This document shows positions 1 through 13,980 of a stretch of 19,280 nt of DNA, in pieces. Positions within the stretch are counted from its first letter, which is position 1; the number at the start of each line of letters is the position of its first letter. The translations under genes and the position numbers were made by a program. This DNA is from a virus. Its lineage: Duplodnaviria; Heunggongvirae; Uroviricota; Caudoviricetes. Below the pieces are notes generated by a model, which saw nothing but the letters and a program-made list of their open reading frames with translations, was not told where the DNA came from and did not search any database. The stretch lies in IMG/VR virus record IMGVR_UViG_2711768037_000017, positions 1 through 19,280 of that record. One strand, written 5' to 3'.

Positions 1-1158
1 ATGCTCACCGTTAAGCAAATTGAAGCAGCAAAGCCGAAAGAAAAACCATACCGCCTTCTCGATGGTAATGGCCTGTACCTTTATGTCCCTGTATCAGGGA
101 AAAAGGTATGGCAGCTTCGCTACAAGATTGACGGTAAGGAGAAAATCCTGACCGTCGGAAAATATCCGCTTATGACTTTGCAAGAGGCAAGGGATAAAGC
201 ATGGACTGCGAGGAAAGACATCTCGGTTGGCATCGATCCGGTAAAGGCGAAAAAGGCTTCGTCTAACAACAATTCCTTTAGCGCCATTTACAAGGAATGG
301 TACGAGCACAAGAAGCAAGTCTGGTCAGTAGGCTATGCAAATGAACTTGCAAAAATGTTTGATGACGACATTTTACCCATCATCGGCGGTCTTGAAATTC
401 AGGATATTGAGCCGATGCAACTACTGGAAGTAATCCGCAGATTTGAAGATCGCGGTGCAATGGAGCGAGCAAATAAAGCCCGCAGAAGATGCGGCGAGGT
501 TTTCCGTTACGCTATTGTCACTGGTAGGGCTAAATATAACCCGGCACCTGACCTTGCTGACGCCATGAAGGGATACCGCAAGAAGAACTTCCCATTTTTA
601 CCTGCCGACCAGATCCCGGCATTCAACAAAGCACTTGCAACATTTTCAGGAAGTATCGTATCGCTCATTGCGACCAAAGTTTTACGCTACACAGCCCTAA
701 GAACGAAAGAGCTTCGTTCCATGCAATGGAAGAACGTCGATTTTGAAAACAGGATTATCACTATCGACGCCAGTGTGATGAAGGGACGCAAGATTCATGT
801 TGTCCCGATGTCGGACCAGGTGGTTGAACTTCTCACTACGCTAAGCTCCATCACCAAACCAGTATCAGAGTTTGTTTTTGCCGGGCGCAACGATAAGAAG
901 AAGCCAATCTGCGAGAACGCGGTATTGCTTGTGATCAAACAAATCGGCTATGAGGGCCTGGAAAGCGGTCACGGATTCAGGCATGAATTCAGCACGATTA
1001 TGAACGAGCACGAATGGCCTGCTGACGCTATTGAAGTGCAACTGGCACATGCCAACGGCGGATCTGTGCGCGGGATTTACAACCATGCTCAGTATCTCGA
1101 TAAGCGCAGAGAAATGATGCAGTGGTGGGCGGACTGGCTTGATGAAAAGGTGGAGTGA
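1..1158 (+). CDS. int: Tyrosine site-specific integrase, IntS/P4 family (385 aa)
   Basis: Full-length ORF beginning at window position 1. N-terminus MLTVKQIEAAKPKEKPYRLLDGNGLYLYV is the characteristic start of argW-type prophage integrases (CPS-53 IntS, Shigella serotype-converting phages) as I recall them. The C-terminal catalytic region contains HGFRHEF and a downstream tyrosine (RGIYNHAQY). Confidence 0.93.
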   Translation: MLTVKQIEAAKPKEKPYRLLDGNGLYLYVPVSGKKVWQLRYKIDGKEKILTVGKYPLMTLQEARDKAWTARKDISVGIDPVKAKKASSNNNSFSAIYKEWYEHKKQVWSVGYANELAKMFDDDILPIIGGLEIQDIEPMQLLEVIRRFEDRGAMERANKARRRCGEVFRYAIVTGRAKYNPAPDLADAMKGYRKKNFPFLPADQIPAFNKALATFSGSIVSLIATKVLRYTALRTKELRSMQWKNVDFENRIITIDASVMKGRKIHVVPMSDQVVELLTTLSSITKPVSEFVFAGRNDKKKPICENAVLLVIKQIGYEGLESGHGFRHEFSTIMNEHEWPADAIEVQLAHANGGSVRGIYNHAQYLDKRREMMQWWADWLDEKVE

Positions 1159-1373: not shown

Positions 1374-1391
1374 CCTTTGAAATTTTATCTC

Positions 1392-1946
1392 ATGGTGTGC
1401 ATTATGATCTTTGAGGCGCAAAGTCTTTATTTATATTTTTTGTCTCTTTTAGCCGTTGTGTTATGTATTACACTATTGACACGATATAACTATTTTTCTC
1501 ACATCAACTTTGCAAGTAACAGGTATTTCTTTATAGACGGATTGCGTGGGATAGCTGCGTTCAGCGTTCTTATTAATCACGGCGCTCATACAATTATTAC
1601 CAATGGAGTTCAGCCCATATTTATAGACTTCACAAAATACTCCATCACAGGGAATATGGGTAGCTTCGGTGTACAGATTTTCTTTTGCATTACAGGATTT
1701 TTGTTCTTTGATAAATTAATAAAAGGAAATAATACATTTGACTGGAATAAATTTTATGTTGCTCGGATAAAAAGACTCGTTCCTCTATATATGCTTACTG
1801 CGCTTTTGGTGGCAATTTTAGCTATTATATTATCCGGCAGTTCAGCAAGGCTTAACTTTGTTGATTTTTCAAGCTTCCTAAATTTTTTTGGGTTTGGATT
1901 TTTGGGCACAGAAATCTTCATTGGCTCTTTTAACGCATCAGGATAA
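1392..1946 (+). CDS. Membrane O-acyltransferase (Acyl_transf_3/OafA-Oac-like), N-terminal portion, ended by an in-frame TAA; probable lysogenic-conversion gene, likely a pseudogene
   Basis: Translation contains the family motifs FIDGLRGIAAFSVLINH and RIKRLVPLY and is strongly hydrophobic. Very AT-rich relative to its neighbours. The ORF track starts at TTG 1377, which lies only 4 nt after the putative -10, so ATG 1392 or ATG 1404 is the more likely start. Stop TAA at 1944-1946 is in frame with the next ORF. Confidence 0.75.
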   Translation: MVCIMIFEAQSLYLYFLSLLAVVLCITLLTRYNYFSHINFASNRYFFIDGLRGIAAFSVLINHGAHTIITNGVQPIFIDFTKYSITGNMGSFGVQIFFCITGFLFFDKLIKGNNTFDWNKFYVARIKRLVPLYMLTALLVAILAIILSGSSARLNFVDFSSFLNFFGFGFLGTEIFIGSFNASG

Positions 1947-1952
1947 AATGCG

Positions 1953-2531
1953 GTGATATGGACTCTACCGTATGAATGGAGGTTTTATTTAATTTTCCCT
2001 CTATTATCGATTGCCATCGCAAGCAAGAGATATGGTATGTTTGCCATTTCCGCAGTAATGTTACTTGCGGCAAGAGACTTTATGACAGAATTTGTTTTGT
2101 GGCCATATTTTATAGTTGGCGCCTTAGGTGCATATATATTCAATAAATCTTATGTTAACATTGATGATAAATATTGGATATTCTCATTCATTTCTTTCAT
2201 AGCTATTTTTGTTATCTTCTGCTCTTCCGCAGACAGCTATGGACGAATCAGATTTGCATGCATTTCATTACTATTTATAATGGTACTTATAACTAAACCA
2301 AAAATATTTAAAATAAAATCATTAGTTTATTTAGGTGAGGCAAGTTATAGTCTTTATTTGCTGCATTTGCCTATCATGGCTATAGTAATGAGAACAATAA
2401 ATAATTTCTATAACCTATCGAGCATGTCTACTGTGAATTACACAATTTTGATAGCCTTTATTGCATCTCTGTGTAGCGTTATTTCCTGTATCTGTTTTAA
2501 GAATTTTGAGTGGAGATTCATTAAAAAGTAA
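1953..2531 (+). CDS. Membrane O-acyltransferase (Acyl_transf_3), C-terminal portion, in the same frame as the preceding ORF
   Basis: Same reading frame as 1392-1946 (1377 and 1953 are both divisible by 3). Translation carries the downstream family motifs WTLPYEWRFYLIFP (WSLxxE-type) and GEASYSLYLLHLP. ORF track start is GTG 1953. The two ORFs together are the length of a single acyltransferase. Confidence 0.75.
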   Translation: MIWTLPYEWRFYLIFPLLSIAIASKRYGMFAISAVMLLAARDFMTEFVLWPYFIVGALGAYIFNKSYVNIDDKYWIFSFISFIAIFVIFCSSADSYGRIRFACISLLFIMVLITKPKIFKIKSLVYLGEASYSLYLLHLPIMAIVMRTINNFYNLSSMSTVNYTILIAFIASLCSVISCICFKNFEWRFIKK

Positions 2532-2535
2532 CATT

Positions 2536-2553
2536 GCGGGGCGATGGCCCCGC
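2536..2553. terminator. Bidirectional intrinsic terminator between convergent acyltransferase and tailspike genes
   Basis: Perfect GC-rich inverted repeat GCGGGGC-gatg-GCCCCGC at 2536-2553. On the plus strand it is followed by ttgattt; on the minus strand by a U-rich tract a few nt away. It lies between the acyltransferase stop (2529-2531) and the tailspike stop (2564-2566). Confidence 0.6.
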
Positions 2554-2563
2554 TTGATTTCCG

Positions 2564-4762
2564 CTACGCTATATTAAGATTACCATATGTATTGTTTCCA
2601 AGACCATACCATGCCCAGTTTGTTCCTGATGCAGGAGTACCTGCATTGTGAATCATATCGCCTATATTTATCAGCACTTTCCCAGGGTATGTTGTAGTAG
2701 GAGCAGTGTCTATTCCAGCAGACACATCGGCAAAACGCCAACCACAGGAAACCATATCTGCGTTATCTCTAAATTTCTTAATTGAAAACGTGTATCTGTT
2801 TCCTCTATATATCATTCCAGCAAAACTAGGCCAGTCAATAAGTTGATTTACTGGTGAGTTTAAAGTGTTACTAAACTCATTATTTTCAATAACTGGTTCA
2901 TCGATACGCACACCCGAAGTTGATACTAGATATGTAGAATCAAAGTCGTTGTCAGAAATAATTGGAGCATAACCACCAATTTCACAACCTGTATTGCCAT
3001 GAACAAAATATGACTTATTCCCTCGGTATATAGATTTTCTCCATGTGGGCATTGTTACTTTTACGGCATCAGTTCTATCAAACTGGTTGTTTTCAATCAC
3101 AAGTCCATAACAATATGCAGACATCTGAGTTTCAGCATAATCATTTATGGCATAACCACCGCCTTTAAATGTATTTTTTGTTATTTTAATTCCATTGAAT
3201 GATGTTGAGTAGTCATTACTACCATTCCAGATAATTAGAATATGAGATGAAAATGTGCCATCCTCGTTCTGATCCCCAATGCTTATATTGCTATCAATAA
3301 CAACATTCTGCGCTGCAACACCGTTAGATTCACCTCCTATCTCAACGAATATTCCTTGTCCTGTTTTGATGTTATTCGATATAACTGCACCACCAGTCAC
3401 CCCCCAAGGAGTAATCCTAGACTGAATACTTATAGGGCTTATAAAGTGATTTCTTTCTGCAATTAAATATTTTGTTCTTGCTGAGCACGCAAAATCTTCA
3501 CCAAAAGTATGCCATTTTCTGCCTGTTCTGTACGTTTGGCAGTCAATCATCTTAGCAATTCCATTAAGATTTTTAGTGAAAAATGTATAATTTGTTACCA
3601 AATCAGTCCTTACATTGCTAAGAGTTATATCCTCATTTGGTATAGCACCGTCACCATCAGCATCTGCCATTACAAAGATTCTTGCAGCCAATACGTCAAT
3701 ATCATTAATAGATCCACTACTCCCCTCAAGTGCGAAACCAAACCAATTCTCTTGAGGGGTAAACGTGGTATCTGAAGGTCCAGTTGAAAAATTTGTGCAT
3801 GACTGGTTTAACTTTATACCATTAAATTTAAAGTTTTTGCAGTTGAATAAACCAAAGCAAACACGCTCAGCCTCACCATTTCCATCTGTATTTATATTTA
3901 CATCATTATCTGCGTAAACAAATAAATTATTTTTACCATTAATTACAATTGCTGTTTTACGTATAACACCTGCAGAGTCATGATATTGCTGGCTGATTTG
4001 GTAATTAAACTTTATCTCACCGGCGCTAAAACGTATTGCTCTAACACCACCAAATTTTGATATACAAGCGTTAACCGATGCCGTTGAATCATGCACTCCG
4101 TTAATATCATGTCCAGCCCAAACTGTATGTATGCCATCGAGCACACAATTCGAACGGATCCAGCAACCAGAGCCACCACCATCACTCTCACCAGTTCCCG
4201 CAAGGAAAGCAGCGAGCTCAGCATACGAACCATCCCACGGAACTGTGGGGCTAAATATGGTGATACCGTTGTGCTGAGATTTAGGCATGCTGGCATCCCA
4301 GTAAAACTGCCCGCCGCCAAAGTTGGTTCCTGGTACGTATCCAATTACATTTAATGTGTGATTCCCAGCAGGCTCGCTCATTAAGGTATGGATGTCAGGA
4401 ACATTCTCCATTCGCTGGCTAAACTGATCGGGATCATACTTCAGCACATTGGGAAAATAGAACTGCTGCGAACCATACGCATCATATACAGCCATGGAAT
4501 GGCCTTGCACAGTTACGAACTTGGCAATCTGTCCGTTATATACCGGATATCCGGCAGCGTTAATGATTATTGGTTGCGAAACAGGAACGTGAGAGCCGTC
4601 TTCGTTCTCTATATAAACCTGAATCTGGTTTTCTGAATTTACGGGGTCAGCGTCAATTTTACCGATATAAATTTTGCCATTGGCTACGGCTTTAAAAGAA
4701 CGAGCCATAGTGAAGAGTTGCGAAGGCATGCTTACCACAACATTTGCGGTGATATCTGACAT
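2564..4762 (-). CDS. Tailspike protein: P22-family N-terminal head-binding domain plus divergent C-terminal receptor-binding/depolymerase domain (733 aa)
   Basis: N-terminal ~115 aa ([42 protein letters not shown]...VLKYDPDQF) closely matches the head-binding domain of P22, Sf6 and HK620 tailspikes as I recall them. Start chosen at the internal Met (ATG at 4762-4760) with a GGAG Shine-Dalgarno 8 nt upstream. The 16-codon upstream extension in the ORF track is not present in homologues. The remaining ~620 aa is Gly/Asn/Ser-rich, consistent with a beta-helix receptor domain. Confidence 0.9.
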
Positions 4763-4883
4763 TTCATTGCTCCAGACGAATGATATGATGCAACCATGAT
4801 GTGATTGCATACCGAAATGGTACTATTGAGTATTTATCCAGTAGGTTACGATGCCATTCCACCCAACTGGTGAGGCATCAAGG
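4763..4883. promoter_or_regulatory. Divergent intergenic control region between tailspike and mnt (candidate Pmnt and Mnt operator)
   Basis: A 121-bp non-coding gap between two divergently oriented starts. Contains the inverted repeat ATGCAA-N11-TTGCAT (4788-4810) and AT-rich -10-like hexamers. By position it corresponds to the mnt/arc-ant control region of P22 immI. No operator could be identified with confidence. Confidence 0.35.
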
Positions 4884-5144
4884 ATGTACAGCAAATACGA
4901 CGAGGCGCAGTTTCACTTGAGACTTCCGCATGAACTCCACGCGAAAATTAAGCAGCGTGCGAAGATGAATAACAGGTCGCTGAACTCAGAGATAATTGCA
5001 GCGATTGAAGAATCATTGGCTAAACAAAGCTCTGCATCTGTTTACATTGACGATGCAGAGCGTATGGCAGAACAACAATCTGATATGGTTAAGAAAATTG
5101 TCTTTGATACGCTCAAAGAGCTATATAAAAAAGACAGCAGCTAA
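4884..5144 (+). CDS. mnt: Mnt-like ribbon-helix-helix (Arc/MetJ family) repressor (86 aa)
   Basis: C-terminal half DAERMAEQQSDMVKKIVFDTLKELYKK is nearly identical to the P22 Mnt tetramerisation region as I recall it (DAERLADEQSELVKKMVFDTLKDLYKK). The N-terminus has the RHH beta-strand/helix layout (QFHLRLPHELHAKIKQRAKMNNRSLNSEI). Start placed at internal ATG 4884 with a GAGG Shine-Dalgarno 8 nt upstream; the ORF track begins at 4851. Confidence 0.85.
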   Translation: MYSKYDEAQFHLRLPHELHAKIKQRAKMNNRSLNSEIIAAIEESLAKQSSASVYIDDAERMAEQQSDMVKKIVFDTLKELYKKDSS

Positions 5145-5164: not shown

Positions 5165-5242
5165 ATGCAAAGAGATATGCTGAATATTGCGTTCTACATA
5201 TTTGGTTTTTGCACGTTCCTGGTGTTTGCGAAGCTATTCTGA
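5165..5242 (+). CDS. Hypothetical 25-aa hydrophobic peptide (MQRDMLNIAFYIFGFCTFLVFAKLF), possible small membrane protein or gene remnant
   Basis: ATG at 5165 is preceded by GGAGG (5156-5160) with 4-nt spacing, 21 nt after the mnt stop. The product is one predicted transmembrane helix. It overlaps the 3' end of the convergent gp16-like gene by 9 nt. Too short for the ORF track; entirely predictive. Confidence 0.2.
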   Translation: MQRDMLNIAFYIFGFCTFLVFAKLF

Positions 5243-7231
5243 CAACGCATCAGACTTGGCACCCTGAGTCAGGGCGTTAATGGCCTTTTGCGCCTGCTGC
5301 ATGGCTTTCTCAAACGCTGTTGATCCGCGTGGTGTGTTTGCCATTCGGAGCATTGCATTTCTGAATGGCTCGCTCTCATAGGCGCGAGTAAGAAGTCCGT
5401 AGCTTACCGCTGCGCCAGTTGTCGCCGGGTTCATTGCCGTCCCATACCCGATAATGAACGGGATGGTTTGCTGCCCTGTTGGTGTTGTTACTGCCGCTTT
5501 TGCAGCCTGCTGCGTGGATTGCAGGTAGTTTTTCAATCCTTTCAGATAAGCAGCGTCCTGCCCCTTAAATGTGATGCCAGTCTGGTTTTGCAGGATGTTA
5601 AGCTGTCGAAGGAACTGATCAGGGGAACCACCTGATTTCTCCATCGCTTTTCCAATGATGCCATTGCGCATTTGCGCCCTGCCAACACGACCAACTGAGT
5701 TATACAGCGTCTTAATTTCCGATTTGTTCTTGCTGAATAGCATGTTGTTGACAACTTCCGGCGTCAGGTCGCCTTTCATGAGAACATTCTTCAGCCTGGT
5801 ATTCTTTAGTTTCGCCGCTTCGTCAGCGTAGACGGCATTGGCCTGCTGATATTTACGGAGAGTATCGTTGCCAAGATTCTGACCAATGGCACCATTGATA
5901 TCGTCAGTCATTGCCTTGTAAACGCGCTGAATGGCAGCATCGGAACGGTTTGGTAACACTGGTCGCTCACCCTTCACGTCCATTCTGAACTGGCTGCGCA
6001 GGTCGCTTAATTGCTTCAAATCCAGAGTTACCGGACCATCAGGGCCAGCATTGCGAACAAGCTCATCACGATATGACTGAAGTTTTGAAATTGTCTCGTT
6101 ATCAGCTACCTTACCAAGCTTCTGCAGGTTAGATATTTCTGTATCAATCTGCTGAATTGCTCGCGCAGGCTGAATGTTTACTCCAGCCATAGCATTCTGA
6201 ACCTGCTCCAGTCGATTACCGGCGGCACGACGAATTCCTGATGTTTTCGCTTTAAGGCTGTCAATAACAACCGCTGGATCATACTCACCGAATTTATCAG
6301 CAAATCTCTGCACCAACTGGCTTCTCGCTTCCTGTTGCGTTGCTCTCATTCCGCTTGTGCCAGCTAGAGGGATATTTTCTGCTGTAGTCTGCGCCATTTT
6401 TCCGACGCGGGAAGTTGGTTGTAACAGGTCTGTGGTGTGCAGAGGAACTCCTTCACGCTCTGCAAATCTGATAGCCTGCTGAGCTTCTGGCGCGATAGCA
6501 CCACGAACGCCACGATAAGCAGCACCTAATCCACGTCCGGCAGCGTTAATAGCACCGCCAGCAAGTACACCAACGCCTAAATCGGTGGCGAGTGCTTCCG
6601 CATCATCTTTCGCACTATTTGCAGCAAGTGATCCAACTGCGTTTTCTGCTAGAAGGCGAGTTGCCCCCTGAGCAATTCGACCAGCAAGTGTTGGTGCCTG
6701 TGTTGCCGCTCTCTCAATGCCAGCAGGAGTGAGGTAAGGCAATGCCTCAGCAAATACCCTGCCCTCTGTAGTTTGTGGAGTCAGCGCGCCTTGCTGAAGG
6801 CCAAAGTCCTGCTCTAATCCCTGAGTTGTTACTCGTGGCGCTGGTTGATATGTCCCATCGCCAATTCCGAGTTTACCGCCAGCCCAAGCCGCCGCGCTTG
6901 TTACAGCATCTGCAACTGATGCAGGTATGTTTGCCACGTTCACGCCCGCCTGCACCAGTCCGCGACCAGTCTCTTTTACTGCTTCACCAAGATCAGACAT
7001 AAATCCACTTTGCTGTGGTTGTTGCTGTGCTACTGGTTGCTGTGTCTCCACTGGCTGCACAGATGGCAATGGATAGGCAGCATAGAAAGCTTGCTTAGCC
7101 TGCTCTGCATTTTCTCCGGCTTGCGGGGCAACGACTTCATTGAAGTATTGCTCCTGAGCCTGCGCTTTTTGTTCTGGTGCTAACGCCTGATACTGTGGAG
7201 AGGCGATAACATCTTTCCATGCTTTAGCCAT
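5234..7231 (-). CDS. Ejection (internal/injection) protein, P22 gp16-like (665 aa)
   Basis: Last gene of the late operon, in the gp16 position by synteny. Large Ala/Gln/Gly-rich protein. Its start overlaps the upstream gene's stop (TAATG at 7229-7233). Confidence 0.7.
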   Translation of the reverse strand: MAKAWKDVIASPQYQALAPEQKAQAQEQYFNEVVAPQAGENAEQAKQAFYAAYPLPSVQPVETQQPVAQQQPQQSGFMSDLGEAVKETGRGLVQAGVNVANIPASVADAVTSAAAWAGGKLGIGDGTYQPAPRVTTQGLEQDFGLQQGALTPQTTEGRVFAEALPYLTPAGIERAATQAPTLAGRIAQGATRLLAENAVGSLAANSAKDDAEALATDLGVGVLAGGAINAAGRGLGAAYRGVRGAIAPEAQQAIRFAEREGVPLHTTDLLQPTSRVGKMAQTTAENIPLAGTSGMRATQQEARSQLVQRFADKFGEYDPAVVIDSLKAKTSGIRRAAGNRLEQVQNAMAGVNIQPARAIQQIDTEISNLQKLGKVADNETISKLQSYRDELVRNAGPDGPVTLDLKQLSDLRSQFRMDVKGERPVLPNRSDAAIQRVYKAMTDDINGAIGQNLGNDTLRKYQQANAVYADEAAKLKNTRLKNVLMKGDLTPEVVNNMLFSKNKSEIKTLYNSVGRVGRAQMRNGIIGKAMEKSGGSPDQFLRQLNILQNQTGITFKGQDAAYLKGLKNYLQSTQQAAKAAVTTPTGQQTIPFIIGYGTAMNPATTGAAVSYGLLTRAYESEPFRNAMLRMANTPRGSTAFEKAMQQAQKAINALTQGAKSDALSE

Positions 7232-9323: not shown

Positions 9324-9779
9324 CTATCTCCCGTGATTCAGGAATTCGATTAGTTCTTCGCGTGTAGCACTGTAAAATGTCACGTCATCCACGCCTTTGA
9401 AGTATTTCTTGATGGTTCCTACACGCTTAAGGCCAATCATTGCGCAGTAAATCTGCCCGTGGCGGAATTTGCGTGCGGCGAACGATGTGACGCACTGAAC
9501 GGTGGTGTTAGTCAGAATGTATCGCCAGAACGCCAGCCCGATTTCCTTGCTGAAGCCGCGAATCTCTGGCAGGTACATGGCGTGGCAATCGAATGTCAGC
9601 GGCTGAATCTCCTGATAGTAAACAATGCCGCCGAACTGCCCGTGCACGTTCACCTCAAAGTAACGGCATTCAGGTTTGTAGTCGTATCCATCACCGTTGT
9701 TGCTTCCGGCAATAATGTCAGGGTGATTTCCGACTGCTTCGATCAGGTCGATATTTCGCGTTGGTTTGAACTGAATCAT
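9324..9779 (-). CDS. Virion protein in the P22 gp14 position (151 aa)
   Basis: Assigned by synteny between the tail needle and the gp7-like gene. No motif recognised. Tightly packed against both neighbours. Confidence 0.6.
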   Translation of the reverse strand: MIQFKPTRNIDLIEAVGNHPDIIAGSNNGDGYDYKPECRYFEVNVHGQFGGIVYYQEIQPLTFDCHAMYLPEIRGFSKEIGLAFWRYILTNTTVQCVTSFAARKFRHGQIYCAMIGLKRVGTIKKYFKGVDDVTFYSATREELIEFLNHGR

Positions 9780-10627
9780 TACTGCTCCGCAATGATTTTG
9801 ATGGTTGTGGCAGTAAACGCCGCACCATTAGACTGAATGGTTAACGTGCTGCCATTTGTGGCAAGAAAGCCGTCTTTATCCACGCTGAAGAACGTAGCTA
9901 ACAGGATGTTATCGGTTGTTGTAGCAGAGTTGCGACTGCTGACCAACGTGTCAGGAACAGAGCCGGAAAAGGTTAGCTGCATTGACCTGTTGGCGGTTCC
10001 GCTGGGCCACGTGCCGACAATCGACAGCTTGAAGAACAGCGTTTTGTTCTCGTTGAACACAACCATCTTGTTGTTAACGGTGTCGAAGAATGGTGCCAAC
10101 GTTCCGGATGACGGCGTGAGCGTTTTCAGCAGGCTAACAAGGTTGGTCGGCGCTGTCGGGATGGTTACAGATACGCCAGAGTAAACAACCTCTGACTTCT
10201 TGCGAGTAGTGGCATACTCCAGAGCATCGATGCGCGTTTCATGGTCTGAAACCTGCGATTCCAGCGACTGAACTCTGGTATCAAGCGACGCAATATCGCT
10301 TTCATTCTGAGCTATTCGTGTTTCATGTTCCTGAAGAGTTGATTCTGCCTGGCTGATTCGCTCCTCATGATTAACAAGCGTTGCTTCCGCAGCAGAAATT
10401 CGCTGCTCATGGTCAGCGAGAATCACATCCTGCTCATCGTTCCTGACCTGTGCATCATAAGCGCCCTGTCCGGCCTCGTTGGCCTTGTTAGCCACATTAC
10501 CAACATCAGTACCCTGTGCAATAACGTACAGCAGATATGACTGCGAGAAGATATTACGCGGAAGGACTGATGTGTCGAGCCGTGTAGCCTGAATGATTAC
10601 CGGCACATTGAGATTCGAATCCGCCAT
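9779..10627 (-). CDS. Tail needle protein (P22 gp26 / Sf6 gp9 type) with C-terminal knob domain (282 aa)
   Basis: N-terminus [43 protein letters not shown] matches the conserved gp26 N-terminal domain as I recall it. The central region is a heptad-like coiled-coil repeat (HEQRIS, HEERIS, HETRIA, DTRVQS, HETRID). A ~130-aa Ser/Thr-rich C-terminal extension resembles the knob of Sf6-type needles rather than the short P22 tip. Confidence 0.85.
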
Positions 10628-12054: not shown

Positions 12055-12516
12055 TCACGTACTCGGATCATCTTTCTCGATGTAAAACCGATTCCACGTA
12101 AACGCGCTTTTGTTACCACTACCGCGAGGCATGTCATTTCGCCGCTCAAGTGGTGGTATTTTGGTTAAAGCGATACAGATTGTCTGATATGCACTGTCAG
12201 CAGCGGTAAGGAGAGCGTCTGACGGCTGAATGACGTTATCCATGCACACTTGCACAGCGAGTTTCAACGCGACGCCATCATTTGCCCATGCAGGGATACC
12301 TGAATCATCGTCAGGTAACGGCATGATGCCGTTTTCTGTATCAGCAAACTGATACCCAAGCTCGATACCTTTAGCCTGCCATGCTGCCATCATGTCTTCG
12401 AGGTCATTAATGGCATCTTCAATTGCCTGAGGGTCAGCATCTGTCAACGTGGCATTGGAATACAGCCCGGCTTTTCGTAAAGCCTTTAGAACGAGATCAC
12501 CCTTCGTTTTCGCCAT
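12055..12516 (-). CDS. Head-to-tail adaptor protein, P22 gp4-like (153 aa)
   Basis: N-terminus MAKTKGDLVLKALRKAGLYSNATLTDADPQAIEDAINDLEDMMAAW resembles P22 gp4 (KTKGDLV...ATLTD...DLEAMMAEW as recalled). ATG at 12516-12514 has an AAGG/GGAAG Shine-Dalgarno upstream. Confidence 0.85.
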   Translation of the reverse strand: MAKTKGDLVLKALRKAGLYSNATLTDADPQAIEDAINDLEDMMAAWQAKGIELGYQFADTENGIMPLPDDDSGIPAWANDGVALKLAVQVCMDNVIQPSDALLTAADSAYQTICIALTKIPPLERRNDMPRGSGNKSAFTWNRFYIEKDDPST

Positions 12517-12685
12517 CTTCTTCCGCCTTAGCCACTTTTTGCTTCGTTGCGGTTTCTTCAGGAGTTTTTACCCAACCTTTTTTCAGGTGAGATTTAACTT
12601 CTTCGTCATCAACAATGATGTAATCGACAGCAAACTGACCACAGGTGATCATGTTGCCAGGCTTATAGAGCATTGTTCGTGCCAT
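12497..12685 (-). CDS. Small hypothetical protein between coat and gp4 (62 aa, acidic C-terminus)
   Basis: Start moved to internal ATG 12685-12683, which has a GGAG Shine-Dalgarno 6 nt upstream. The longer ORF-track start at 12724 would lie inside the post-coat terminator hairpin. Product MARTMLYKPGNMITCGQFAVDYIIVDDEEV...EEDGENEG. Overlaps the gp4 start by 20 nt. Confidence 0.5.
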   Translation of the reverse strand: MARTMLYKPGNMITCGQFAVDYIIVDDEEVKSHLKKGWVKTPEETATKQKVAKAEEDGENEG

Positions 12686-12693
12686 TGTCTTCT

Positions 12694-12720
12694 CCCAATA
12701 AAAATGGGGCCGAAGCCCCA
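12694..12720 (-). terminator. Intrinsic terminator/attenuator directly downstream of the coat gene
   Basis: On the minus strand: UGGGGC-UUCG-GCCCCA (6-bp GC-rich stem, UUCG tetraloop) followed by UUUUUAUUGGG, lying 6 nt after the coat stop codon (12727-12729) and just before the Shine-Dalgarno of the next gene. Probably partial, since essential genes follow. Confidence 0.55.
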
Positions 12721-12726
12721 CCAAAA

Positions 12727-13980
12727 TTACTGCCCGGCAATAACGATGCCCGTATATTCAGGAACAAGTACAGAGCAACCGTACAGAGTGGTGAAACGAG
12801 CAGTGGTTACGCCTTTGATGTGGTCGAAGGCGTAAGACATGATCAGCGTAGCGCCCTGCTCGGTGGTTGCTGTCATTACCTGTGGACCCTGACCAGTCGG
12901 GAACGCCAGTTTGCCGTACATCAGCTCAACAGAACCATCAGCCCAGAACAGGTTAGCCGGTGCGGCATTTTTGTTGAGAATGGTAATTGCTGCACCATTT
13001 GCCGCGTTAGCATCAACGTTTGCATATGGTCGGCTGGCGACATCAGCGTTATCAGGCGGCAGAATTTTCGGGGAGATAGTTACTGTCGTTCCGCTTACTG
13101 CCAGAACGCGGAATACCTGCGGCTGCCCGGTGGTATCTTTGGTGATTTGGTGTACGGAATTCACGCCAGCAATGGTGAACGCATCGCCAACCTGCAAACC
13201 AGATGCAGATACCGTAATGGTCCCCTGTCGGTTATCCACTGGCATATCGTTGGCATCTTTCGCTTCAACCTTGTGCGCAGGTTCAGCCGCCAGCGTCAGG
13301 GAAGTTGCTGTACCCTTCGGAACACGACCAGAAATATCGGTCTTGTAGCTATCGAAGGACGCAACCGGAGGGATCTGCGCTTTTTCGTATGCTGTCAGGG
13401 TTGCACCCTGAGCATAGGCACGGTGACCAAGCTCGCCAGCAAGGTCTTTGTAGTTGAAGGGGTTCCAGAAAGAGTGACGGTTGATACCCTGAGGTACACC
13501 AATCGCCGTCATGGTGGCATCAATACCTGCCGCACAGTTCCACAAATCACGGCCCTGTGTTCCTGTGGTTGAGTCAGCCATCGTGATCACGTTAGTAGCA
13601 CGCTGCGTGACCATGGAAATCAGGTCAGAGTCAATCTGTGCAGCAAGGCGCATACCTGCAGCGCGACCAGCTTCAGTTTTATGTTCCGGGTCACGCATTT
13701 CACGCGCATCCAGAGTGTACAGTATGTTTTTCGGCTCCTTGAACACAGAAGGAACAAGGCGCTGAACCAGTGCTGTTGGCGTTTTGCCGCTGAGGTCTAG
13801 GCCTTCCTCAATGTTCATGTGGTAATGCTGCGGACGATACAGAACATCACCTGCTCGCTGCATTGCTGTATCACCGGGACGGAATTTTTTAGCGTTACGG
13901 GAAACTACGCAGGCGGCCTCAAAGCCTTCAACGTAGTTTTCGAACATGATTTCAAGGTCTTTTGCTAATTGGTTAGCCAT
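12727..13980 (-). CDS. Major capsid (coat) protein, P22 gp5 type (417 aa)
   Basis: Position after the scaffold gene and a size near P22/Sf6 coat proteins. Local similarity to P22 coat as recalled (NLFWADGS vs NVFWADDA; RPYANVDAN vs RAYANVNTS). Confidence 0.88.
   Translation of the reverse strand: MANQLAKDLEIMFENYVEGFEAACVVSRNAKKFRPGDTAMQRAGDVLYRPQHYHMNIEEGLDLSGKTPTALVQRLVPSVFKEPKNILYTLDAREMRDPEHKTEAGRAAGMRLAAQIDSDLISMVTQRATNVITMADSTTGTQGRDLWNCAAGIDATMTAIGVPQGINRHSFWNPFNYKDLAGELGHRAYAQGATLTAYEKAQIPPVASFDSYKTDISGRVPKGTATSLTLAAEPAHKVEAKDANDMPVDNRQGTITVSASGLQVGDAFTIAGVNSVHQITKDTTGQPQVFRVLAVSGTTVTISPKILPPDNADVASRPYANVDANAANGAAITILNKNAAPANLFWADGSVELMYGKLAFPTGQGPQVMTATTEQGATLIMSYAFDHIKGVTTARFTTLYGCSVLVPEYTGIVIAGQ

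Follow-up and report, generated by a model that had tools for sequence, protein, structure and literature searches.

The hairpin behind the coat gene of a CUS-3-type P22-like prophage has the form of a terminator and may mainly protect the 3' end of the coat message

Immediately behind the coat gene in the late operon of a CUS-3/Sf101-type P22-like (Lederbergvirus) prophage lies a GC-rich hairpin with a UUCG tetraloop and a U-tract. I propose, at about even confidence, that this hairpin is a dosage boundary inside a single late operon, a leaky terminator in form that would mainly shield the 3' end of the scaffold/coat mRNA. Its anatomy, its rarity, its gene context, and its positional conservation and covariation among distant relatives can be read directly from the DNA, and these are laid out first. 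The analysis covers a window of 19,280 nt, that is, the whole stretch of DNA that was available, and extends from there to the coat loci of related phages and prophages.

Gene context of the hairpin

The window represents the late operon of the prophage. Its coat-gp4 junction is 97-99% identical to those of Sf101, JEP4, Kapi1 and CUS-3, and 408 of the 5426 complete E. coli genomes contain this junction. The gene order is that of CUS-3: small and large terminase, portal, scaffold, coat, a small ORF, gp4, gp10, needle and gp14, followed by the ejection proteins gp7, gp20 and gp16, after which the tailspike closes the operon. The features that matter here are the following.

12727..13980, minus strand: coat (major capsid) protein, 417 aa; PF11651 P22_CoatProtein, E = 5.8e-76
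12497..12685, minus strand: 62-aa ORF (MARTMLYKPG...); phrog_1175, E = 9e-29; hypothetical in CUS-3
12055..12516, minus strand: gp4 homologue (head completion / tail accessory factor); PF11650 P22_Tail-4, E = 7e-41
9779-10627, minus strand: needle (gp26 homologue), 282 aa; PF16532, E = 1e-117
9324-9779: gp14 homologue; sole match DUF2824
5234-7231: gp16 homologue; no Pfam match, assigned by synteny with the CUS-3 record
2564-4810, minus strand: tailspike; PF09008 Head_binding
2536..2553: all-G/C hairpin GCGGGGC-GATG-GCCCCGC, 7 bp, between the convergent tailspike and oac-like genes

The coat protein is 95-99% identical to those of CUS-3 and Sf101. The 62-aa ORF behind it is the counterpart of P22 orf69, Sf6 gene 6 and HK620 HKbT, and its 3' end overlaps by 20 nt the start of the gp4 homologue, which is the first essential gene downstream of the hairpin. 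The N-terminus of the 62-aa ORF also matches phrog_3769 (phrog_1175 is a family of unknown function), and in P22, Proteus, Vibrio and sphingomonad loci the hairpin is followed by a small ORF whose N-terminus has a "MLYKPGG"-like motif. Judged by these matches, the 62-aa ORF appears to be a widely conserved, uncharacterised late-operon protein.

Further downstream, Pfam recognises Phage_stabilise (gp10), P22_gp7 and Inj_translocase (gp20). Together with the gp4 and needle matches, and with gp16 placed by synteny, these confirm the claim of the initial annotation that essential virion genes (gp4, gp10, needle and ejection proteins) lie downstream of the hairpin. Most late genes abut or overlap, and the spacers are 90 nt between portal and scaffold, 18 nt between scaffold and coat, and 41 nt between coat and the 62-aa ORF. 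A crude consensus scan of the minus strand found no sigma-70-like candidate from the hairpin to gp4 and gp10, the nearest ones being at 10578-10551, inside the needle gene, with others further downstream. Because no promoter candidate lies between the hairpin and these two genes, read-through is required at least for gp4 and gp10; and since the downstream genes are essential and gp4 and gp10 have no visible promoter, most polymerases must pass the hairpin. Upstream, the same kind of crude scan, which leaves weak promoters possible, found no sigma-70-like site on the minus strand from 17181 to 12727 (portal-scaffold-coat), and the 90-nt portal-scaffold gap, read directly, holds no obvious structure or promoter.

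The hairpin at 2536-2553 is the sole other strong intergenic hairpin on the late-operon strand and stands at the far end of the late operon. It is probably the shared end terminator of the tailspike and oac-like genes, and the Sf6 record lists its equivalent as a putative terminator for oac transcription.

Several further features of the window deserve mention in their own right. The needle has a C-terminus of the Sf6-type knob domain, not the P22-type tip. The oac-like O-antigen acyltransferase gene (PF01757 Acyl_transf_3; 1377-2531, plus strand) consists of two same-frame ORFs of 189 and 192 aa, which cover profile positions 3-119 and 125-320 and are separated by an in-frame stop at 1944-1946; it is probably a nonsense-mutated pseudogene of a serotype-converting gene. 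A complete tyrosine integrase with an Arm-DNA-binding domain occupies positions 1-1158 (plus strand) at the start of the window, and the gap that separates the gp16 homologue from the tailspike, the "ant moron" position, holds an Arc/Mnt-type ribbon-helix-helix repressor (4851-5144, plus strand).

Anatomy and rarity of the hairpin

Read on the minus strand, the end of coat and the start of the next gene run cag TAA ttttgg TGGGGC TTCG GCCCCA TTTTTATT GGGAGAAG aca ATG, and can be divided as follows.

12729-12727, minus strand: coat stop codon TAA (sequence)
12721..12726, minus strand: 6-nt spacer UUUUGG, from stop codon to core stem (sequence, fold)
12705..12720, minus strand: core hairpin UGGGGC-UUCG-GCCCCA (sequence, terminator scan, fold)
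12720-12715, minus strand: 5' arm of the hairpin
12714-12711, minus strand: cUUCGg tetraloop
12710-12705, minus strand: 3' arm of the hairpin
12697..12704, minus strand: U-tract UUUUUAUU, directly 3' of the stem, 7 T in 8 (sequence)
12689..12696, minus strand: Shine-Dalgarno sequence GGGAGAAG (sequence)
12685-12683, minus strand: ATG of the 62-aa ORF

A hairpin 6 nt past the coat stop, with a UUCG loop and a U-run, was what the initial annotation had described, and both coordinates and description prove exact on the minus strand. The span that it assigned, 12686-12726, coincides exactly with the 41-nt spacer between coat and the 62-aa ORF, and the Shine-Dalgarno sequence and start of the next gene do stand right behind the hairpin and U-run (12696-12689, with the ATG at 12685), the GGAG lying 6 nt from the ATG.

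The core stem has 6 bp, five of them G-C or C-G, and two G-U pairs are possible through the GG at 12722-12721, in which case the stem reaches 12722/12703. The gap between stop codon and stem is thus 4-6 nt (6 to the core, 4 with the G-U pairs). The loop is a UNCG tetraloop with a closing C-G pair (C-UUCG-G at 12715-12710). Both parts of the structure fall within the range of intrinsic terminators: the stem is G+C-rich, within the usual 5-14 bp or so and with a loop of 3-8 nt, and the U-tract, for which about 7-9 nt directly 3' of the stem are expected, has U at 7 of 8 positions. The hairpin is in sense orientation and post-stop, and its gap of 4-6 nt is the distance at which termination at lambda tR2 dropped to <10% in vivo.

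Folded in isolation, the hairpin reaches -13.6 kcal/mol with the two G-U pairs (z = -2.69 against shuffles), and a fold of the 91-nt context merely adds weak A-U pairs (z = -1.73). A generic terminator scan lists it, and a search of the whole window against Rfam 15 at gathering score matched no family. On the late-operon strand of the 19.3-kb window there are 8 perfect-stem hairpins at or below -10 kcal/mol, 2 of them intergenic, and the post-coat hairpin is the only one of the 8 with a real U-tract (7 T in 8). When 200 dinucleotide-preserving shuffles were searched for a hairpin at or below -13 kcal/mol followed by at least 6 T in 8, the chance expectation came to 0.01 per 19.3-kb strand. Two other readings of the site were rejected: a terminator for the antisense strand, since CCAAAA and not a U-tract lies behind the reverse complement, and sequestration of the Shine-Dalgarno sequence, since this and the ATG lie outside the hairpin.

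The same element in annotated phages

By position and structure, the post-coat hairpin is one of the "t coat" stem-loops of P22-like and lambdoid phages, in the copy carried by the CUS-3 lineage. The element is already known and annotated in sister phages, and it is nothing new for this prophage type. Its place, a spacer of 41 nt that separates coat from the 62-aa ORF and gp4, is also that of the corresponding features of Sf6, P22, L and HK97. The CUS-3 record carries no annotation of the hairpin, and the CUS-3 sequence is the same as that of the window.

The Sf6 record (AF547987, 6147-6173) describes "t coat" as a "stem-loop that is likely to be a transcription terminator". Like the window, Sf6 is a Lederbergvirus in which the hairpin, made of a GC stem, a tetraloop and a U-run, lies 4 nt past the coat stop and before the homologous gene 6 and a gp4 homologue; unlike the window, its stem and loop read AAGGGGC-TTAC-GCCCCTT, and the two coat proteins are only 18% identical. 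In P22 (BK000583, 6102-6119, recorded as "stem_loop, putative") the hairpin behind gene 5 is again found 5 nt past the stop and before orf69, as AGGGGC-TGCG-GCCCCT-TTCTTTAT, with a UNCG loop, although the U-tract is broken by a C. At the corresponding post-coat place, the record of phage L (MW013502) lists terminators.

The likeness extends to phages with unrelated capsids. HK97 has a "terminator, putative" after gene 5 (major head) and another after gene 12 (major tail); its tetraloop hairpins are at 1193-1214 and 3444-3463 of the collected locus (L136). Lambda has ATGGCCC-TTCG-GGGCCAT, also a cUUCGg hairpin, 2 nt past the stop of gene E and within a 41-nt spacer before FI; the E-FI spacer is at 1461-1502 of the collected locus (L135), or lambda 7161-7201. 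Both resemble the window in that a stable tetraloop hairpin directly follows the structural gene of highest copy number in a late operon under Q antitermination, which for the window is presumed from its relatives. They differ from it in their capsid and downstream genes, which are unrelated, and in detail, HK97 having a GAAA loop and lambda a tail that is T-rich but interrupted (TGTTTCTCTG).

My search of the literature found no mapping of 3' ends and no measurement of termination at the hairpin behind the coat gene of any P22-like phage, and no experimental test of whether the post-capsid hairpin of Q-antiterminated phages, Sf6 included, terminates, stabilises or does neither.

Comparison across coat loci

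Loci for comparison were collected from phage records and from one-genome-per-species bacterial assemblies, with alpha-, beta- and gammaproteobacterial hosts, and their coat proteins are 18-74% identical to the coat of the window. A GC-rich hairpin stands just past the coat stop in 10 of the 11 first records, its stem sequence differing between them. In 24 of 44 non-redundant loci, no perfect-stem hairpin anywhere in the 3-7 kb locus is stronger than the one found 0-60 nt past the coat stop, as against about 0.5 loci expected if hairpins were placed uniformly. Furthermore, a hairpin at or below -10 kcal/mol is present behind 77% of coat ends but behind only 15% of other ORF ends, the latter set being the output of a crude ORF caller (Mann-Whitney p = 7e-10). 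The gap from stop codon to hairpin is at most 7 nt in 23 of 44 distinct hairpins.

When 29 distinct tetraloop hairpins are set in register, all 8 stem pairs show double-sided changes; the alignment was kept gap-free by artificial constant end anchors, which lie outside the counted pairs. Paired cells amount to 95%, compared with 43-67% for slid partners, a comparison that is partly circular, the hairpins having been picked as hairpins. The diversity of pair types across the 29 hairpins, unlike the percentage paired, is not circular. Across the family, then, the post-coat element appears from these alignments to be conserved as structure, not as sequence.

Among close relatives it is the stem that stands still. 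Its 12 bases are invariant in about 66 CUS-3-type loci, the near-identical relatives that a scan of viral contigs mostly yielded and that inform on variation within the lineage, whereas the 5' spacer, one loop base and the Shine-Dalgarno region vary. The 5' spacer is the most variable part (TTTAGG, TTTGGG and TTTTAG all occur), and the loop variant, UUCG to UACG (TACG in the DNA), is still a UNCG loop. In one CUS-3-type viral contig (L077, from about 4167 onward) the coat match ends at residue 389 and the sequence past the stop is unrelated, which suggests an insertion or rearrangement at the coat 3' end.

TTCG is by far the commonest loop, with 13 of 44 scored directly and several C-TTCG-G cases scored as longer loops, and TGCG, TACG and TCCG are also present among the relatives. 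Post-coat hairpins across very different hosts (loci L002-L132) are dominated by C-G-closed UNCG tetraloops, UUCG above all.

The U-tract has a different distribution. At least 6 of the 9 positions behind the GC core are T in 11 of 15 loci with a GC content below 0.55, as opposed to 8 of 21 loci at or above 0.55. It is clearly kept in the enteric and Vibrio lineages, and very stable hairpins occur without any U-tract (for example in L096, L097, L104 and L118). The conserved part, as far as it can be judged from these loci, is the hairpin more than the U-tract.

That the hairpin is a chance palindrome or a functionless neutral relic is hardly credible. The shuffles give it almost no chance of arising in a strand of this length, its position is kept with differing sequences across Proteobacterial phages, and its stem has stayed invariant in close relatives in which the surrounding spacer, loop and Shine-Dalgarno region vary; the comparative data appear already to have effectively refuted this reading.

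Loci with an extra ORF

Some loci have their next ORF starting directly behind coat. Six of these, from the Ralstonia phage Firinga and several alphaproteobacterial (largely sphingomonad) prophages, have the strong hairpin not behind coat but behind an extra ORF of 138-323 aa, and the relocated hairpin is again just before the small "MLYxxG" ORF. The extra ORFs are located as follows.

L007: 2769-3458
L099: 4283-5254
L107: 4289-4729
L108: 4292-4786
L113: 4288-4704
L124: 4282-4740

A PHROG search with the extra ORFs returned no match. Those of about 145 aa have in common the motif "GLLALERNG.NRT.YV...GP.YTND". The extra ORFs may be additional high-copy head proteins and are candidate decoration proteins.

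The company of the small ORF invites a reading in which the hairpin is a translation element for the 62-aa ORF and gp4, by keeping the initiation region unstructured, by providing a U-rich S1-binding enhancer, or by uncoupling their translation from that of coat. The U-run does abut the Shine-Dalgarno sequence, and the hairpin is almost always directly upstream of the "MLYKPG" ORF, even where an extra gene follows coat. However, the Shine-Dalgarno sequence and start codon are not within the hairpin, lambda and HK97 have the same hairpin before the unrelated genes FI and gp6, and HK97 has one after its major tail gene too, so that the hairpin tracks high-copy structural genes and not one downstream ORF. 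I consider a role in translation highly improbable.

Termination at the hairpin

CUS-3 encodes a Q protein that shares 98% identity with gp59 of Sf6, and the Sf6 record likens gp59 to phage 21 Q and lists a PR', qut site and tR' like those of phage 21. For the present prophage, whose own Q gene and late promoter lie outside the window, CUS-3 stands in as the closest annotated relative among genomes that are mosaic. The late antiterminator of P22 is gp23. The nozzle that Q21 forms at the RNA exit channel blocks terminator hairpins sterically and has been described as an effectively absolute barrier to them over tens of kilobases.

Ribosomes are the second consideration. At lambda tR2 in E. coli, termination falls from ~90% to <10% with a stop codon 5 bp upstream, the cause being that the terminating ribosome covers the 5' arm. 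No late gene is translated more heavily than coat, whose stop codon stands 4-6 nt from the stem. Thus, because of the Q21-type antiterminator in relatives and of the stop codon 4-6 nt upstream, strong termination at the post-coat hairpin seems unlikely.

The initial annotation held that the element must be a partial terminator or an mRNA-stabilising 3' hairpin. Canonical terminator anatomy, the conserved post-coat position and the appearance of the same alternatives in GenBank all speak for that choice, but "must be" is too strong in view of the Q21-type antiterminator, the short stop gap and the high-GC relatives that lack a U-tract. The interpretation is reasonable but overstated, and the alternative that it put first is probably the less likely of its two.

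In that first alternative, a genuine partial terminator in late growth, tens of percent of polymerases would stop at the U-tract and transcription would step down after coat. Besides the full anatomy of an intrinsic terminator, it has in its favour the retention of the U-tract in most low-GC relatives, the label of terminator that curators give to equivalents, the wide use of leaky terminators by phages for expression tuning, and the precedent of Tphi in T7. Tphi, the only terminator of T7, is incomplete and directly follows the capsid gene, gene 10, and the essential tail and internal-protein genes downstream of it are reached by read-through. However, Tphi acts on T7 RNA polymerase and not on host RNA polymerase carrying Q, and T7 has the strong promoters phi9 and phi10 just upstream of scaffold and capsid; none was seen in the window, which therefore lacks the strong scaffold/capsid promoter with which Tphi is paired. 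The late operon of the relatives, moreover, is driven by a Q21-type antiterminator, the stop codon has a geometry comparable to the one that all but silenced tR2, and many high-GC relatives have the hairpin but no U-tract. Partial termination of this extent I therefore regard as rather unlikely.

A further possibility is that the hairpin terminates polymerases that Q has not modified, which may be making stray or internally initiated transcripts, either in the lysogen or at an early stage of induction. Unmodified RNA polymerase should stop at such a hairpin when it is uncoupled from translation, and four coding-strand promoters have been reported inside the capsid cluster of the P22-like prophage BTP1; the BTP1 transcriptome paper has nothing on the post-coat hairpin site. 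Yet the portal-scaffold-coat region of the window offers no minus-strand sigma-70-like candidate, with nothing obvious in the portal-scaffold gap, and ribosome occlusion would weaken termination of translated transcripts too. I find termination of this kind improbable. I likewise give little credence to the effect that it would have, which is to insulate the distal virion genes or to produce a short Q-independent scaffold-coat transcript, there being no evident benefit in insulating virion genes that are not toxic.

Protection of the coat message

Of the two roles that the initial annotation offered, stabilisation of the message looks more likely than partial termination, on the grounds of Q21-type antitermination, stop-codon proximity and the high-GC relatives that lack a U-tract. 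For the dosage boundary proposed at the outset, I infer read-through, folding after passage, 3'-end protection and an effect on protein ratios, in the following manner. The hairpin has the form of an intrinsic terminator, with GC stem, cUUCGg tetraloop and U-tract, but a polymerase modified by Q at the late promoter would read through it almost always, and ribosomes terminating 4-6 nt upstream would also occlude its 5' arm. The downstream essential genes (gp4, gp10, needle, ejection proteins and tailspike) would thus still be transcribed. After polymerase and ribosome have gone by, the very stable hairpin would fold. A 3' end at or near it could then come about by either of two routes, through a minority of termination events or through cutting by an endonuclease within the AU-rich spacer, after which a 3'-to-5' exonuclease trims the end. 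The hairpin would halt the exonuclease from going further, and the scaffold/coat segment would outlive the distal segment, with more protein made from it.

Intercistronic 3' stabilising hairpins that confer segmental mRNA stability are known from the malE REP, the Rhodobacter pufBA operon and the CUUCGG hairpins of T4. In these cases, as in the stabiliser reading of the post-coat hairpin, a stable hairpin stands downstream of a gene needed in excess, and the upstream mRNA is shielded from 3' exonucleases while the distal message decays; the T4 intercistronic hairpins even have the same extra-stable cUUCGg motif as the window. Their role is backed by direct half-life or 3'-end evidence, that of the window hairpin being proposed from its sequence, and REP elements are repeated genome-wide, whereas the window hairpin is single-copy and phage-specific.

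Besides the mosaicism of these phages, the Q gene lying outside the window, and the partly circular pairing figure, two considerations weigh against the dosage boundary as I have drawn it. One is the U-tract, which a pure exonuclease barrier would not require and which enteric and Vibrio lineages clearly keep (11 of 15 loci of low GC), so that selection may favour some real termination. The second concerns translation. In lambda, differences between late proteins are attributed mainly to translation initiation (reportedly in work by Sampson and colleagues in 1988), and coat excess may also owe much to it, which the hairpin does not explain.

It is also possible, although I would stop short of calling it probable, that the selected element is the hairpin as a termination-independent 3' mRNA stabiliser at the end of the high-copy head block, in P22-like phages across Proteobacteria and with a parallel in lambda- and HK97-like phages. 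Such a role would fit the persistence of the hairpin in high-GC hosts without a U-tract, its persistence where the polymerase carries a Q nozzle that cannot terminate, and its relocation behind an extra ORF that maybe encodes an additional high-copy head protein.

Conclusions

For every dozen subunits of portal, adaptor or needle, a tailed phage needs coat subunits by the hundred, and a single polycistronic late transcript supplies them all; what sets the ratio of coat to portal or needle is understood only in part. Behind the capsid gene a stable hairpin recurs, a feature noticed long ago in Sf6, P22, L, HK97, lambda and T7. The comparative pattern described here, in which the hairpin is kept without a U-tract, stays close to the stop codon and shifts behind an inserted ORF, sharpens the question of whether that feature acts as a terminator or as a stabiliser.
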